DNA of 32,000 nucleotides. It comes from Candidatus Hermodarchaeota archaeon (lineage in GTDB: Archaea; Asgardarchaeota; Heimdallarchaeia; Hodarchaeales; Hodarchaeaceae). Both the position numbers and the translations under genes were made by a program. Within the stretch, counting starts at the first letter, position 1; each line of letters opens with the position of its first letter. Positions 4,704 through 11,738 of this stretch are shown piece after piece. Below the pieces are notes generated by a model. That model saw nothing but the letters and a program-made list of their open reading frames with translations, made no database searches and was not told the origin of the DNA. The stretch spans positions 200,458-232,457 of the forward strand of contig JBHLKY010000005.1 of assembly GCA_048886185.1 (NCBI GenBank), written 5' to 3'.

Positions 4704-5399
4704 ATGGGCTTTCTTGAAATCTTCATCCTTTCTTTTCTAGTGGCATTATCAGGAGCGATGTCACCTGGCCCTTTACTCACCTATACAATATACAAGGCGC
4801 TTCAATCAAAAAGAAAAGCGTATTTTGCTGGGATTCTCATTTGGATTGGACATGCTATTTTAGAATTCTTATTAATGCTTATCCTGCTTATCGGCTTCTC
4901 TTCTTTTATTACTAACAAATCCGTTATTATCATAATTGGACTGTTAGGGGGTGGTGTGCTGATTTTTTTCGGGGGGAGTCTCTTGAGAGACATATGGTTG
5001 AATAGTATTGATTTCAGCTTTTTATCACCAGAGGGAGGAATCAGTGAGACGCCTGAAAGTTCCCAAAACAAGATAGACCTACTAAACCAACCCACCCTAG
5101 GAGGGGTGTTAGTATCAATGTCGAATCCATATTGGTGGATCTGGTGGGCGGTTATTGGATTGAACTTTATGACACAGTTTTCAGTTGGGTTATTGAACCT
5201 AGAATTTTGGAGTTTTTTTCTGGGACATGAGCTAGGGGATTTTTTATGGTATGTGTCGATAGCTGGGATCCTTGGTTTTACTAATAAGTTATTAACGAGA
5301 AGGATCTATCTTGGTATTATTATTATTTGCAGCTTATTCATGATTTTTTTTGGCATATTCTTAGCTATTTCACCTATTCTCACAGTAGGAGACCTATAA
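4704..5399 (+). CDS. LysE/RhtB family amino-acid exporter
   Basis: N-terminal GAMSPGP motif, GHA(I)LE, SNPYWWIWW, about six hydrophobic segments. Confidence 0.88.
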   Translation: MGFLEIFILSFLVALSGAMSPGPLLTYTIYKALQSKRKAYFAGILIWIGHAILEFLLMLILLIGFSSFITNKSVIIIIGLLGGGVLIFFGGSLLRDIWLNSIDFSFLSPEGGISETPESSQNKIDLLNQPTLGGVLVSMSNPYWWIWWAVIGLNFMTQFSVGLLNLEFWSFFLGHELGDFLWYVSIAGILGFTNKLLTRRIYLGIIIICSLFMIFFGIFLAISPILTVGDL

Positions 5400-5672
5400 G
5401 CTCTGTCCTGGTTGATAATCATCTACATCATCAAAAGCCACACATTTCTTTTCTGCAGCTAGTCTCATAAAATTGTTGTTGCCATTGATAGAAATAATCA
5501 TATGAGAAGTAGATAACGGAATCTCAGCAATTTCTTGTATGAGTTTCATTTTTTTCATGAGGAGTTCGTTGTCATCAAAAGCAACTAAAGTAAGTTGAAT
5601 TTCACTGTTTGCTATTGAAACAAATAAAACTAGCAGCAATAAACAAAAGAATAATGATTTGTAGTAGTTCAT
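5394..5672 (-). CDS. Small hypothetical protein with signal-peptide-like N terminus (92 aa)
   Basis: ATG start, K followed by hydrophobic LFFCLLLLVLFVSIA; fills an otherwise empty gap and its stop overlaps the lysE stop. No family recognised. Confidence 0.45.
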   Translation of the reverse strand: MNYYKSLFFCLLLLVLFVSIANSEIQLTLVAFDDNELLMKKMKLIQEIAEIPLSTSHMIISINGNNNFMRLAAEKKCVAFDDVDDYQPGQSL

Positions 5673-6799: not shown

Positions 6800-7708
6800 C
6801 TAAAAATTATAAAAATATTCTCCATCAGGAGTAAGATTGGTAATTGTTTTATTTTCAATGGGGTCTAAACTCCATTTAGCAGTCTGGTGGTTACTCTCAA
6901 AATGGTCGATGACTGTAGAAGAGCCTACTACACGAAAATCTTCTCTTTTTCCTAAAAATAACTGATAATATGGCATAAAATTCCTTGATTTCTCACTTAA
7001 AGCAGAACATACGATTAAATGTGGCTTATTCTCTACTATTTCCAAGATTATTAGTTGCATCTGATAATTTATATCTTGTTTTTGATGTTGATCAATAACT
7101 TCTTGTAAAACAGGAATCCAAAAATCCTTAATATTGTGATTAGCGAACTCTCTTGCCTCTTTCAGTTTCTGAGATATATACCATGTTAGGATTTGAGTAT
7201 CAGAAAATTCTCTAAGTTGGATTGTGTTTAATTGATATTCTGTCTTTAATATCCCATTTATAATATTTGAATCAACAGTTCCATTATGAACAATGTATAT
7301 CCTTTTTGAATTCTTATTATCATGAATAACTAATGGTTGAACTTGCTGAAAATCTACTGGCATATTTACACTTGCTCTTCGTGCATGCGCTACTAAGATC
7401 TGGTTTGATAACTTAAGTAAAGGAGGTAACAAAAATGATCTGCTTAAACTAGTCGCTTTATAAGAGAATGCTGCATTTAAGTTTAAATTAGTCTGTTCCC
7501 ACTCTATCTCATAATTCTCTTTAGTACCAATAGTCACAACACCCCATCCATCCTTATGAACACAACTTTTCTTCGGTACACCATACACTTGGTTTAAATA
7601 ATGATCATCCTTTGTGGATTTCAGCCAAGCTACAATCCAACTCTCCATTAAATGCCGAGAAGTCCGGCCCTTTTCCTGTTTAACCCAAAAAGACAATAAA
7701 CGACACAT
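6800..7708 (-). CDS. Class II glutamine amidotransferase / Ntn hydrolase (EgtC/YafJ/Dug3-like)
   Basis: N-terminal nucleophile MCRLL, HKDGWG, LVAHARRAS, HNGTV, SDT; 302 aa, no synthase domain attached. Confidence 0.85.
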   Translation of the reverse strand: MCRLLSFWVKQEKGRTSRHLMESWIVAWLKSTKDDHYLNQVYGVPKKSCVHKDGWGVVTIGTKENYEIEWEQTNLNLNAAFSYKATSLSRSFLLPPLLKLSNQILVAHARRASVNMPVDFQQVQPLVIHDNKNSKRIYIVHNGTVDSNIINGILKTEYQLNTIQLREFSDTQILTWYISQKLKEAREFANHNIKDFWIPVLQEVIDQHQKQDINYQMQLIILEIVENKPHLIVCSALSEKSRNFMPYYQLFLGKREDFRVVGSSTVIDHFESNHQTAKWSLDPIENKTITNLTPDGEYFYNF

Positions 7709-7711
7709 AGT

Positions 7712-8092
7712 TTATTTGTTCCCATACTGTTTTATGAGTCCTTTTGAGGGATAATATGTATAAGTAGAAAATTTTATACCCTTTGGAATTGTTTTTACTT
7801 CTACAAGCATTCTGTGGTATAAAGAACCCTCTCCCTCAACTAAATCAATTTGTGTCCAATGAGCTTGAGTTAACTGAAAATAAATTTCTCCCAGAACATC
7901 AGACTGGCTATCTTCGACTATGAATGGAAATCCTAGCTCTGGAGGGGCAACTTTCCGATAACCTACTAAAATCGCTTTCTCAAATTCTAACCCATGAAGA
8001 AGATAATTTCGACTAAACCCAGATTGTAGGGTTCCATATGTAAATAATCGATCACACTTCTCCTTAATAGGCTCAATCTGCTTTTCTGTCAT
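7712..8092 (-). CDS. Gamma-glutamylcyclotransferase (GGCT/AIG2/GGACT-like)
   Basis: LFTYGTL signature, V(L)GEIY, IDLVEG with the catalytic-position Glu, LYHR, YTYY; 126 aa. Confidence 0.9.
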   Translation of the reverse strand: MTEKQIEPIKEKCDRLFTYGTLQSGFSRNYLLHGLEFEKAILVGYRKVAPPELGFPFIVEDSQSDVLGEIYFQLTQAHWTQIDLVEGEGSLYHRMLVEVKTIPKGIKFSTYTYYPSKGLIKQYGNK

Positions 8093-8130
8093 TTTATGAC
8101 AATTTCTCCCTTTGAAAGATCATTTTTTTG

Positions 8131-9588
8131 TTAAAATCCAAATCCACCAAATAAGCTTCGTGATAAGTAATCTGACCTGCTTAAGGCAACTAGAATTCGA
8201 TCATTATCATCTAAAGGGATTTTTATACCTTGAATATCCAGGGTATTCGTAATTTTAATCCCTTGAAAAGTAGAAACAATATTGTCTTTCTCTTGATAAG
8301 TGAGCTTATAATCCACAGATAATATTCCTTGAACCTCTGTTCCGCGGGAAATGCCATATTTTCTACCCCGTTGATCAGTGATTGTCCTAGATTTATTCAA
8401 TTGTACTACTGCATATATCTTTCCCTGCTGTCTTAGCTCTTCAATTTGTCTTGTCGTAAATTCAACTTCTAATTCATCCTGCTCAAAGTCAGTTCTAATT
8501 TTGGGAAGTTTTTGAATTTTAATCCCTAGAATGTCTTGATATTTTTCAGTTTCAACTATCCAGCGAGTAATACTATCTTGTAATGACTCCTCTTTGGTTT
8601 CACGAACGAAGCGGGCATTAACACCATAATAAACAGCCCTTTCCATATTAATTCGATGATTGGGATCAGGAATAATTTTATTTGCTGTGTACAAGTGAAT
8701 TGCATGCATCGCTGAGACACAACACAAGTAAATTAAATCTAAGAGATATTCAACATCCTGTTGAACATCAAAAATACGCACTTCAACTCGATTTGTCATA
8801 AGAGAGGAGTCCTCATCCTCACCTATATTTGTCAATGGCCCTCTAGGTGTAATATCAACAAGTCTATCACCTCTAGGATTAGTTATTACCTTCTTCACAG
8901 TTTCTCCCGCTAAGCGTAATGTATATCGCATCTGTCCGTAGTATTGCATGGGAACTAATGCTGCAGCAGTTCTGGGAATTTGAATTTGTGAAAATCCATT
9001 TTCTTTTAAAACAGTTGAATTAGAGATTCGATTACTCGCAATATTTGTCCGAGTTCCTTGAAATATTGGAGAATTTGCTGATAATGCAATTAATTCTGGA
9101 AGATAATTCCATAGATAGTCATGTACTGTAGCTAACTCATCTACATTCATGAATCCTCCAATTCTTTGCACTGACACGTTAATATGTGTTCCACACATAG
9201 GATTGGGATCACTTTGAATTGGATGGATACTTTGAGAGAATATTTTGTATCCTAGCTGACTGGCAGCATCAGAAAGAAGTTTTCGGCCAGCATATACAGC
9301 CTCAGCAACATCCTTAGGGGGAAGGGGCAAGGTGACGTATTCGATTTGAGTAGGGGATGGTTCAGCATCTAATCCCCGAATTTTTAGTTGCAGAAAATTT
9401 AATCGTTTTGAATCCCGTTCTAGAATCTCTGCAGCACGTACCATCAATTCGTCCGCAGCATCCACTAAAGTGCCTTCTTTTGTAATAATCAAAAACTCTT
9501 CTTCAATACCACAGAGAACTTGATAATTTTTCCAAGGATCAGGATCCAAATCAGGATCTATTTTCTTCGATTTTCGATGTAAAAACAT
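8131..9588 (-). CDS. GCS2/YbdK-family carboxylate-amine (gamma-glutamyl) ligase with C-terminal extension
   Basis: GIEEEF, EPSPTQIEYVT, SIHP, GTHINVS, LIALSANSPIFQG, ASNR, VDITPR, RVEVRIFDVQ, MERAVYYG. ATG 9588 preferred over TTG 9594. Confidence 0.85.
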   Translation of the reverse strand: MFLHRKSKKIDPDLDPDPWKNYQVLCGIEEEFLIITKEGTLVDAADELMVRAAEILERDSKRLNFLQLKIRGLDAEPSPTQIEYVTLPLPPKDVAEAVYAGRKLLSDAASQLGYKIFSQSIHPIQSDPNPMCGTHINVSVQRIGGFMNVDELATVHDYLWNYLPELIALSANSPIFQGTRTNIASNRISNSTVLKENGFSQIQIPRTAAALVPMQYYGQMRYTLRLAGETVKKVITNPRGDRLVDITPRGPLTNIGEDEDSSLMTNRVEVRIFDVQQDVEYLLDLIYLCCVSAMHAIHLYTANKIIPDPNHRINMERAVYYGVNARFVRETKEESLQDSITRWIVETEKYQDILGIKIQKLPKIRTDFEQDELEVEFTTRQIEELRQQGKIYAVVQLNKSRTITDQRGRKYGISRGTEVQGILSVDYKLTYQEKDNIVSTFQGIKITNTLDIQGIKIPLDDNDRILVALSRSDYLSRSLFGGFGF

Positions 9589-9854
9589 AATCAATCACAG
9601 ATACTTCTAATACACAAAATAAGAGATTTTATTTTTTCCTCTAAATTTAAGCTTGATTGGTAATTATTCATAAATTTTTATACTAAGGGCTTTATTAAAT
9701 TGAATCAAGAGTACATTTATTCTACACTATTTATTTGTCTCCTATTGCCATTGAATGATTCTTTTTCTTTAATTGATAATAATTTATTTGGTCAGCCTTT
9801 TATAGAGCGATCATTTTTTCCAAGTAGATACTATGAAGACAATTTTATTGATAG

Positions 9855-11738
9855 TTGATGATTATGAAGCAGAATAGAAAAGGATTAATCGTACTGATAA
9901 TCTCATTATTAGTACTTTCACTTCTAAATTTTTCCTCAATAACAGCCCCATTTTTTGGTCCCTATGATGTCAATCCAGACTATTATACTACTAACGTGGA
10001 TTCTGGTGATTCACGAACGTATATATTTGATAGAATACGATTTCAGGATCATATGAGCGAATTTGAGGAACGAGAGATGATGGTCATGATACCTTTCGAA
10101 GGAGAGGACATTGACATTAGTGTTTCTGAAGGTAGCAAAGTAACTATTGCAGTTATCAATGTTAATGACACTCACATTGAATCCCAGTGGGTATGGTCTC
10201 TTATCAATGGTAGCGTTTTCAATTGCGATCCAATATATTTCGATAAATCTTCCCTTCTAATCGATGACCATCAAGGATATGGTCCTAGGATGGTTTTTAC
10301 CACCAATGTTTCTTTGATTGAAGAAGTGTATAGTAGCACATCTTGGAATTATGAGATCAACATGGACCGAGTACGGATTTTCAATGAATCATGGGAAGAT
10401 CCTTATAGCTCCCGAGAAGAATATGAATATGACCTGTCAACAGGATTTCTAACAAATCTGCGGATTTCATTTGAAGGTCCTGATTCTCGAATGGAAATTG
10501 AAATACGTGAGACTGAAACATGGAATCCTGATTGGTTTGAACTTGGTGTAAATGTTGGTGATACTAATACATACGTCCTCAGTAAGATGACTTGGTATGA
10601 TGGATATGATGGTACTTACCATCATGACACCTATTTCCTTGTTGTTGTTGATGGAAATCCAATATTTTTACTTCTTCATCAAGGAGACGAGATAGTCGCC
10701 GAAGTAATTAATACAGCTGGTGATTTCGTCGAATTACAGTTAACTTTCAAACAACTCAAAGAGGACAAAGTAACTATTGATGAAAATCCCTATAGGATTG
10801 ATAAAAGCACATTTTATGCTCCTAGAGATCTCGGAGCACCATTACTAATGACTACTAATCGAACAACTTGGGAATATGCTGCTCCCGGTGATGTTGTATT
10901 AGGGGAAGATGTAGTAAAGTTTCATAATGAAAACACTTCTTCAGATGGTCAATGGTTCGATATGATGGAAGGCGCGTGGAATCTCACGACTGGGTGGTTA
11001 CAACGCTTTTACACTGTGAAGATTGAAGACCCAGAAGGCGACAAAATAATTCAACACGAAATGGAAATATTGGATGTTGATTTAATTAAACCAGAAGGAC
11101 CAGCAGAATTTATAAGTGTTTCCACAGGGGATTCTATAACTTATGAGTTTAAAGAGATCCAAACAGCTGATAACGATAAAATAAATATGACATTTCCCGA
11201 TCAACAGATCTGGATTCAAGCTGGTGATACAATGACCGTAAAAATCAAAGGTGTCCAGGGTTCTTTTGTTACAGTTGAATTGACAATTGATTCAGCAATA
11301 GATGGAGAGGTAGTGGTTGATCCAATTACTTTTGATATCACAAAATTTGACGAAGGACCACAATTCCTTCTACCTACTGAAAAACAGATGATAGAAGATT
11401 TTTTCAAAGACACACCAGATGTTGAATTAATTTTCGATGATACTAAAAGTGCTACTATCACAACCAAATTTACGAACGGTGATAGGGAATATCATCAAAA
11501 ACGTGTTTTTGATCTTGAAACAGGATGGCTCATCGAATACAATCAAACCGTTTTCGAAAAAGGGGATCTTGTTGAAAAAGTCTATGCTATTTCTACTGAC
11601 ATTTCCATTGACACATCAGAACCAGAGGCAACAGGAACAGGCCCAGAAGATATCGTAGAGCTTACTCCAATTCCACTCTTCCCAGTGATTCTTTCCCTGA
11701 TAATAGTTGTGGGGTTACTTCGGAAGAAGAATGGGTAA
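9855..11738 (+). CDS. Exported acidic surface protein with three tandem ~185-aa repeats and C-terminal TM anchor
   Basis: Signal peptide KQNRKGLIVLIISLLVLSLL; repeats begin GDSRTY, GDTNTY, GDSITY; ends TPIPLFPVILSLIIVVGLLRKKNG. Alternative ATGs at 9858 and 9864. Confidence 0.85.
   Translation: MMIMKQNRKGLIVLIISLLVLSLLNFSSITAPFFGPYDVNPDYYTTNVDSGDSRTYIFDRIRFQDHMSEFEEREMMVMIPFEGEDIDISVSEGSKVTIAVINVNDTHIESQWVWSLINGSVFNCDPIYFDKSSLLIDDHQGYGPRMVFTTNVSLIEEVYSSTSWNYEINMDRVRIFNESWEDPYSSREEYEYDLSTGFLTNLRISFEGPDSRMEIEIRETETWNPDWFELGVNVGDTNTYVLSKMTWYDGYDGTYHHDTYFLVVVDGNPIFLLLHQGDEIVAEVINTAGDFVELQLTFKQLKEDKVTIDENPYRIDKSTFYAPRDLGAPLLMTTNRTTWEYAAPGDVVLGEDVVKFHNENTSSDGQWFDMMEGAWNLTTGWLQRFYTVKIEDPEGDKIIQHEMEILDVDLIKPEGPAEFISVSTGDSITYEFKEIQTADNDKINMTFPDQQIWIQAGDTMTVKIKGVQGSFVTVELTIDSAIDGEVVVDPITFDITKFDEGPQFLLPTEKQMIEDFFKDTPDVELIFDDTKSATITTKFTNGDREYHQKRVFDLETGWLIEYNQTVFEKGDLVEKVYAISTDISIDTSEPEATGTGPEDIVELTPIPLFPVILSLIIVVGLLRKKNG
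10005..11550 (+). repeat. Three protein-level tandem domain repeats within the 9855 CDS
   Basis: GDxxTY at aa 51, 235, 425 (nt 10005, 10557, 11127); TG[FW]L with Gly at aa 197, 380, 557. DNA identity is low, so the duplication is old. Confidence 0.8.

Follow-up and report, generated by a model that had tools for sequence, protein, structure and literature searches.

What is the use of a predicted γ-glutamyl ligase whose operon also encodes two enzymes expected to cleave its product? The question is raised by three genes in a stretch of 32,000 nucleotides from Candidatus Hermodarchaeota archaeon (Asgardarchaeota, Hodarchaeales; assembly GCA_048886185.1, contig JBHLKY010000005.1, positions 200,458 to 232,457), hereafter the window. 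They encode a ligase (LIG), a cyclotransferase (GGACT) and a class II glutamine-amidotransferase-like hydrolase (GAT2). LIG appears to found a narrow Asgard-only family, and the genes that recur beside it belong to four unrelated folds: FGase/PghP-like proteins, GGACT, and class I and class II glutamine amidotransferases (GATases). These four folds share a single property, the cleavage of amides on glutamyl residues; therefore the ligase probably makes a γ-glutamyl amide from free glutamate, and this is the main argument developed here. The trio is read as a make-and-break module for the γ-glutamyl amide of a small amine, a reading given an even chance of being right. The features are as follows.

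8131..9594, minus strand: ligase gene LIG, an open reading frame (ORF) of 487 amino acids (aa) from TTG 9594; likely start ATG 9588, giving 485 aa
8500..9537, minus strand: catalytic GS/GCS-fold domain of LIG, about residues 20–365, with invariant columns and motifs that align with YbdK
8134..8499, minus strand: extra C-terminal domain of LIG, about residues 366–487, a small β-barrel
7712..8092, minus strand: GGACT/AIG2-type γ-glutamyl(amine) cyclotransferase, 126 aa, with a match to PF06094
6800..7708, minus strand: class II (N-terminal nucleophile, Ntn) glutamine-amidotransferase-like hydrolase GAT2, 302 aa, with a match to PF13522 and nucleophile Cys2
9595..9854, minus strand: AT-rich intergenic stretch upstream of LIG, presumed promoter of the three-gene unit

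A conserved three-gene operon

An initial annotation of the window described three co-oriented genes with gaps of 38 and 3 bp and with catalytic motifs. ORFs, Pfam matches and alignments bear this out: the gaps separate the minus-strand LIG, GGACT and GAT2 frames in that order, all three proteins retain their catalytic motifs and each scores above its Pfam gathering score. The start of LIG is probably ATG 9588 and not TTG 9594, because an identical recorded protein (P0004, 100% to LIG) is 485 aa long. The trio is kept in the same order in eight genomes of the genus, that of the window included; therefore, the arrangement is not due to chance. Linkage of all three genes in other genomes, an expectation of the initial annotation, holds in this group of eight and fails beyond it: Loki genomes have a class I GATase as the third gene, and other relatives have none.

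The ligase belongs to the GCS2/YbdK superfamily

LIG matches Pfam GCS2 (PF04107) with 41.9 bits (cut-off 21), over residues 134–189 only. Profile alignment with YbdK-type sequences by hhalign extends the match to residues 27–334 (253 columns, probability 99.7, E 1.3e-25). The motifs GIEEEF, GTHINVS, SANSP, ASNR and RVEVRIFD show no variation across 29 homologues, and each aligns to a motif of Escherichia coli YbdK; the catalytic domain also carries TQIEYVT. The AlphaFold2 model (predicted local distance difference test, pLDDT, 79.5) finds its best fold match in YbdK 1tt4 (Z 25.7, 302 residues aligned, root-mean-square deviation 3.4; Foldseek E 4e-13), followed by plant glutamate–cysteine ligase (GCL; Z 20.9), Dop (18.0), GshF (17.2), glutamine synthetase and PafA (16.4); GS-like amine ligases appear among the fold neighbours too. 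Membership in the superfamily is marked by the sequence and profile matches, the GS/GCS fold and the metal/ATP motifs GhExE, GxH, SxR and RxExR. Fold and catalytic motifs are those of the YbdK/GCS2 ligases (PF04107; PDB 1r8g, 1tt4), from which LIG differs by a deletion of ∼22 residues before GTH, an insertion at about residues 200–230, a C-terminal barrel of ∼120 residues and an Asgard-only range.

Within the superfamily, LIG stands apart. Its identity to YbdK is 17–20%, and a sequence-profile search of the PDB with the LIG family retrieves no YbdK, only insignificant glutamine synthetase rows. With 25–59 bits, LIG falls below the NCBIfam cut-offs (176–437) of the YbdK and GshA equivalogs (TIGR02050, NF010039–NF010045). 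It does not belong to the PafA/Dop Pup ligase family, since at E 0.1 Pfam gives GCS2 and a weak GCS match only. On an outgroup-rooted tree, the LIG family is monophyletic on a separate long branch (support 100/99), which places the ligase outside GshA, EgtA and YbdK. A phmmer search of 1.84 billion representative proteins yields only 40 matches of the LIG family; ordinary GCS2 proteins of 360 aa surface there with E values of just 1e-7 to 4e-4. Asgard archaea account for all the close homologues that are named, with 72–81% identity in Hodarchaeales/Heimdall and 52–58% under Loki, Thor, Hermod and Odin labels. From these comparisons LIG appears to found a narrow Asgard-only family, far from YbdK, GshA, EgtA and PafA.

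The C-terminal domain of ∼120 residues is kept in all members of the family, even those 31–35% identical, and ends with LFGGFGF in the crown clade. Modelled alone, it forms a small β-barrel (pLDDT 87.6). Fold searches with this barrel give at best Z 5.0, in SH3b/Sm/BirA-C-like rows, and nothing below E 0.05 in Foldseek. An SH3, Sm or BirA-like identity, considered for the barrel, is not established, no match exceeding Z 5.0.

The fold is also found elsewhere in Asgard genomes. A 990-aa ORF on another contig of the window genome (C15:55713-58682) has, close to the N-terminal end, a weak GCS2-like domain that scores 23.4 bits with PF04107. Similar frames of 955–1410 aa occur in other Asgard families, and P0157, from the representative search, has 1350 aa. 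These giant ORFs are a second, unrelated use of the ligase fold in Asgard archaea.

The cyclotransferase and the class II hydrolase

GGACT matches PF06094 with 51 bits (cut-off 22.8), and its motifs YGTL and E-G-E-G..Y.R, conserved in 30–31 of 31 sequences, place it in the family. It is the single PF06094 match in the window genome, which is 96% complete. Cyclotransferases of the GGACT/AIG2 type prefer γ-glutamyl amines over γ-glutamyl derivatives of α-amino acids. Two observations concern relatives of this protein. A stand-alone Loki orthologue (L061:4986-5372, minus strand) lies in an open frame of 128 codons where no ATG, GTG or TTG ORF of at least 80 aa is found; the complete protein may begin at an unusual start codon. 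In the clade with FGase–histone fusions described below, two proteins of 473–479 aa (L057:4260-5699 and L071:4272-5693) have a GGACT domain in their middle (about residues 108–226); their flanks match no family and their genes are unlinked to the ligase.

GAT2 matches Pfam GATase_6 (PF13522) with 31.9 bits (cut-off 27). Cys2, which follows Met1, and H108-A-R110, H141-N-G143 and S169-D-T171 are invariant across 16 aligned homologues, as in class II enzymes, in which the H-x-R and S-D-T motifs hold the α-carboxylate and the α-amino group of the glutamyl moiety. Only 25 homologues are found among 5.8 billion proteins. They show 53–64% identity, the protein evolving faster than its operon neighbours; where the organism is given, all are from Hodarchaeales or Heimdallarchaeota, and all those examined lie inside a LIG–GGACT operon. 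In the Atlas, its nearest clusters consist of stand-alone archaeal GATase_4/6 proteins. A complex prediction of LIG with GAT2 scores 0.00 and is informative neither way.

Families and motifs of both partners agree with the γ-glutamyl amide chemistry proposed in the initial annotation. Its dismissal of ergothioneine synthesis also stands: GAT2 is far below the EgtC equivalog TIGR03442 (19.8 bits, cut-off 218.65) and the window genome has no EgtD (PF10017), EgtB not having been searched for. On this score and the missing EgtD, this pathway is rejected.

A succession of partners along the ligase tree

An orthologue of LIG is present in 76 of 400 Asgard genomes surveyed. The spread is patchy: the orthologue occurs in 10 of the 21 other genomes in the genus of the window genome and, within the main Loki family, in 51 of 135. 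The ligase neighbours were classed by profiles built from the loci and placed on the outgroup-rooted ligase tree. The order of the genes, their family membership, the intactness of the motifs, conservation and the pattern of partners are direct observations.

The basal clade (31–35% identity), found in small genomes, has a translationally coupled operon for an ATP-grasp protein (RimK/YheCD/TTL-like), an FGase-family amidohydrolase and the ligase; in many cases an ADP-forming CoA-ligase-like gene comes first. This operon gives the impression of a system that builds peptides or glutamyl tails; its genes overlap in L042:1201-6458 and also in L035–L041. In a clade at 45% identity, the divergent neighbour of the ligase is an FGase joined to a genuine histone fold, which scores 53.4 bits with the archaeal histone model (cut-off 50). 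The fusions (L043:3951-4862, minus strand; L044:6632-7477; L045:3960-4859) carry the histone fold at their C-terminus, and in this clade a gene for myo-inositol-1-phosphate synthase lies on the other side. Locus L046 combines an FGase on one side of the ligase, with a weak poly-γ-glutamate hydrolase match, and GGACT on the other.

In the crown clade, most Loki loci are of the type ligase–GGACT–class I GATase and a few contain ligase and GATase only; this GATase matches Peptidase_C26 and has an intact Cys-His-Glu triad. Deeper members of the window genus have ligase–GGACT. In two of these genomes (G070 and G071), a gene for a GH77 4-α-glucanotransferase lies between the two (L050:3398-4945, 607.8 bits; L051:3398-4981). 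A subclade of the genus at 78–81% identity has ligase–GGACT–class II GATase in the eight genomes mentioned above. Class I (Loki) and class II (window genus) GATases thus fill the same slot after GGACT. The window genome itself has no FGase, no orthologue of the class I GATase and none of the basal clade's ATP-grasp partner. The LIG–GGACT–GAT2 trio is therefore a recent variant confined to a shallow Hodarchaeales subclade, and the ligase together with some glutamyl-amide hydrolase makes up the older core.

Coupling of the ligase with the removal enzymes

Among the 400 Asgard genomes, 55 have LIG and GGACT, 21 LIG only, 19 GGACT only and 305 neither, counts uncorrected for kinship and descriptive only. 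Between Hodarchaeales and Loki, identities are alike for the ligase (55–58%) and GGACT (51–60%). In the window genus, all ligase-bearing genomes carry GGACT, directly adjacent except in G070 and G071.

An HGD-like gene followed by GGACT, with the ligase missing genome-wide, is seen in at least seven Loki genomes (completeness up to 99%); in five of them a class I GATase comes after GGACT. The junction is clean, with 33 bp in L056. Where present, the GATases of these ligase-less loci are scattered among those of ligase-bearing loci on the GATase tree; therefore, the ligase was repeatedly lost or gained, the erasers remaining intact. Because GGACT and GATase persist without it, the system is not a closed write/erase cycle. 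Collectively, the coupling of ligase and erasers is strong but not obligatory.

In Loki genomes, the module sits within a cluster that it overlaps in part and that encodes an acyl-CoA dehydratase activase (263 bits) together with three proteins resembling HgdB, HadC and double-cubane reductases, all far below equivalog cut-offs. Such loci include L001:4515-11975, L056, L058, L060, L064, L065, L069 and L070. None of these activase/HgdB-like genes is found in the window genome.

A proposed module for small γ-glutamyl amides

On the preferred reading, the trio would act as one transcription unit. The ligase would activate the γ-carboxylate of free L-glutamate with ATP and join the glutamate to an amine X. 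GGACT would free X and 5-oxoproline, the free α-amino group attacking the γ-amide, and the class II Ntn hydrolase would free X, or modified X, together with glutamate. The γ-glutamyl group would most likely be a temporary handle that allows capture, protection or detoxification. The removal enzymes would be modular, passing from FGase/PghP-like proteins to GGACT and then to GGACT with a class I GATase (Loki) or a class II GATase (window), and they could work without the ligase as well. Glutamate as donor, the γ linkage, a small molecule as acceptor and the flux direction are what we infer.

Beyond the succession of partners, several points favour this reading. GGACT and both GATase classes target a γ-glutamyl group with a free α-amino group, as follows from the cyclisation mechanism and the glutamine-binding motifs. 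The ligase keeps all Mg-ATP and acyl-phosphate motifs. The swap of class I and class II enzymes in the same slot matches an experimental interchangeability on a γ-glutamyl substrate: Arabidopsis GGP1 (class I, C26) and GGCTs each complement the yeast dug3 mutant, which lacks the class II enzyme (PMC9804317). Downstream, the one Hydantoinase_B (5-oxoprolinase-type) gene of the window genome could offer recycling of 5-oxoproline; the genome also has one GGT and no PxpA. As to alternative pathways, neither a glutathione S-transferase (GST; searched as GST_N_3) nor EgtD is found in this genome.

Making and breaking enzymes in one unit are typical of transient-handle pathways. Glutamate serves as such a handle in the PuuA/PuuD, IpuC/IpuF, GmaS and Atd amine pathways, in EgtA/EgtC and in butirosin synthesis by BtrJ/BtrG. 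As in the Asgard operon, the Puu, Ipu, GmaS, Egt and Btr pathways encode the ligase and the γ-glutamyl remover together. They differ in encoding enzymes that modify the intermediate, none of which is present in the Asgard operon, and their ligases are of GS or ATP-grasp type, EgtA being the exception.

Other observations weigh against the module. With no intermediate-modifying enzyme in the Hodarchaeales operon, ligase and erasers alone would form a futile cycle. Intact GGACT and class I GATase persist in several ligase-less Loki genomes and, because these loci are scattered over the GATase tree, the erasers are independent of this writer. The acceptor could be other than a small amine, given the shortened stretch before GTH and the additional C-terminal barrel. 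In the Loki class I GATase, the resemblance to the ammonia-supplying GuaA and TrpG is at least as strong as that to PuuD-type hydrolases. Finally, the acyl donor and acceptor are both assigned by inference.

Glutathione-like turnover and salvage as unlikely alternatives

The alternative that survives best, unlikely as it is, is a glutathione-like cycle, in which the ligase makes γ-Glu-Cys or another γ-glutamyl amino acid to serve as a low-molecular-weight thiol or peptide, and GGACT with the GATase-type hydrolase controls its level and recycles the amino acid. Haloarchaea use γ-Glu-Cys as a thiol without gshB. YbdK and plant GCL are the nearest folds of LIG. In eukaryotes, glutathione turnover relies on a ligase, a cyclotransferase and a GATase-type hydrolase (PMC9804317), and this combination of GCL, ChaC/GGCT and Dug3 (class II) or plant GGP1 (class I) has exactly the layout of the Asgard trio. 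The earlier argument that one writer with two erasers is not explained by glutathione is thus wrong as a principle. Analogous neighbourhoods are known in bacteria as well, as the initial annotation had noted. Iyer, Burroughs and Aravind (2008) described a GCS2-sized bacterial ligase, ‘New CAL’ (e.g. Clostridium perfringens CJD_1902), which neighbours, in proteobacteria, a GATase-like thiol peptidase or, in firmicutes, an AIG2-type cyclotransferase, and for which they predicted synthesis of glutathione-like peptides and not of protein tags (PMC2588565).

The differences are nevertheless substantial. The Asgard genes form one operon, the ligase is not a GCL and lies far below every GshA/YbdK equivalog cut-off on its long separate branch, and the cyclotransferase is of GGACT/AIG2 type, not ChaC or GGCT. 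No GST is found in the window genome, whose only GSH-S_ATP match (a 308-aa frame, 44.5 bits, cut-off 23) does not distinguish gshB from a RimK/LysX-type protein and is not assigned to gshB. The distribution is patchy in the genus and in the Loki family, and for a thiol buffer it would be futile to co-transcribe synthesis with breakdown. ‘New CAL’ differs too: the Asgard ligase is of another family (only GCS2 and a weak GCS match at E 0.1), archaeal and with an extra C-terminal domain, and its system holds both erasers together, with a succession of partner folds. Classical glutathione synthesis, for its part, is disfavoured, as LIG falls below the GshA equivalog cut-offs and no GST_N_3 match is found.

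Second among the alternatives, and improbable, is an uncoupled salvage. GGACT and the GATase-type hydrolase would degrade γ-glutamyl compounds, of external origin or from peptide turnover, and so supply fermentation with glutamate or 5-oxoproline; the ligase would be an optional neighbour that has another role and is not the writer for these enzymes. This reading draws on the ligase-less HGD–GGACT–class I GATase(–HGD) clusters of Loki genomes with their clean junction, on the scatter of their GATases over the tree, on the joining of the Loki cluster to the activase and three HgdB/DCCP-like genes, and on the genomes with GGACT only (19) or ligase only (21). It does not account well for the window genus, in which every ligase-bearing genome has GGACT, adjacent except where GH77 intervenes (G070/G071), nor for the GAT2 homologues, which sit only beside a ligase–GGACT pair in the cases examined. 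Moreover, in four separate lineages the ligase adjoins a glutamyl-amide hydrolase of a different fold, which is hard to explain without a shared substrate.

Macromolecule tagging and amidation as unlikely alternatives

Tagging of proteins or other macromolecules has a low probability. The ligase would add single γ-linked glutamates to lysines or N-termini, recognised by the barrel, and the hydrolases would remove the mark. By an equally slim chance, the targets could be histones or other chromatin proteins, with the FGase–histone fusion, GGACT and GATases as erasers. What invites the idea is the family-specific barrel with its weak resemblance to SH3b, Sm and the BirA C-terminal domain, the FGase-like neighbour fused to a genuine histone fold in one clade, the translational coupling of the basal ligase to a RimK/TTL/YheCD-like ATP-grasp ligase, and the fold shared with Dop (Z 18.0) and PafA (Z 16.4). 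PafA and Dop have the superfamily fold in common with LIG, likewise the principle of a ligase plus an amidase; however, the Asgard erasers have unrelated folds and need a glutamyl group with a free α-amino group. YbdK and plant GCL are structurally closer than either, and no match to the Pup ligase family is seen. The analogy with PafA and protein lysines drawn in the initial annotation was overstated, its hints being indirect. Moreover, the fold matches of the barrel stay below a meaningful level (best Z 5.0), and the histone fusion sits in another clade and on another enzyme. Characterised GGACT and class I and class II GATases act on small free γ-glutamyl compounds. As to a Pup-like gene, the sole unassigned ORF of at least 60 aa near the operon is a 92-aa frame (5394-5672) that matches no family, a Pup-sized protein (∼64 aa) not having been searched for.

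Least probable is a glutamine-dependent amidotransferase, in which the GATase would hydrolyse glutamine and feed ammonia to the ligase for amidation of a phosphorylated carboxylate: both GATase classes are classical suppliers of ammonia, the best scores of the Loki class I protein are with subunit models of GuaA, TrpG and CarA, and GatB/GatE of the same superfamily work in this way (PMC2588565), but GGACT, the more widely kept partner in the crown clade, would be left without a role, several ligase loci have no GATase at all and two GATase folds would need to dock on the same ligase.

Surroundings of the operon

The operon is flanked by genes for an APH-like kinase, LysE, an aminotransferase and a family-less protein of 627 aa. 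The last, at 9855-11738 on the plus strand, is divergent from the operon and has no Pfam match at E 0.01; one relative (L054) has a partial homologue (38% identity) close to the operon. Flanking genes are shared with the operon only among the closest relatives, the sole shared one in the genus comparison being the convergent APH-like kinase. Conserved neighbours in the genus thus give no functional clue. A tRNA scan of the 32,000-nt window finds no tRNA.

Significance

Nothing specific was found in the literature on Asgard γ-glutamyl enzymes, or on neighbourhoods of FGase, ATP-grasp and COOH–NH2 ligases. The principle of such neighbourhoods is already known from bacteria; the divergent ligase family, its added domain, the paired erasers and the succession of partners are the new part. 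Asgard archaea thus possess a compact ligase family with its own extra domain, beside which four unrelated hydrolase folds were recruited in turn, and the γ-glutamyl chemistry encoded here is explained by no characterised pathway. If the acceptor is a metabolite, the module would represent a new amine-handling or cofactor route in Asgard archaea. If it is a protein, the archaeal lineage nearest to eukaryotes would have a reversible modification that is new.

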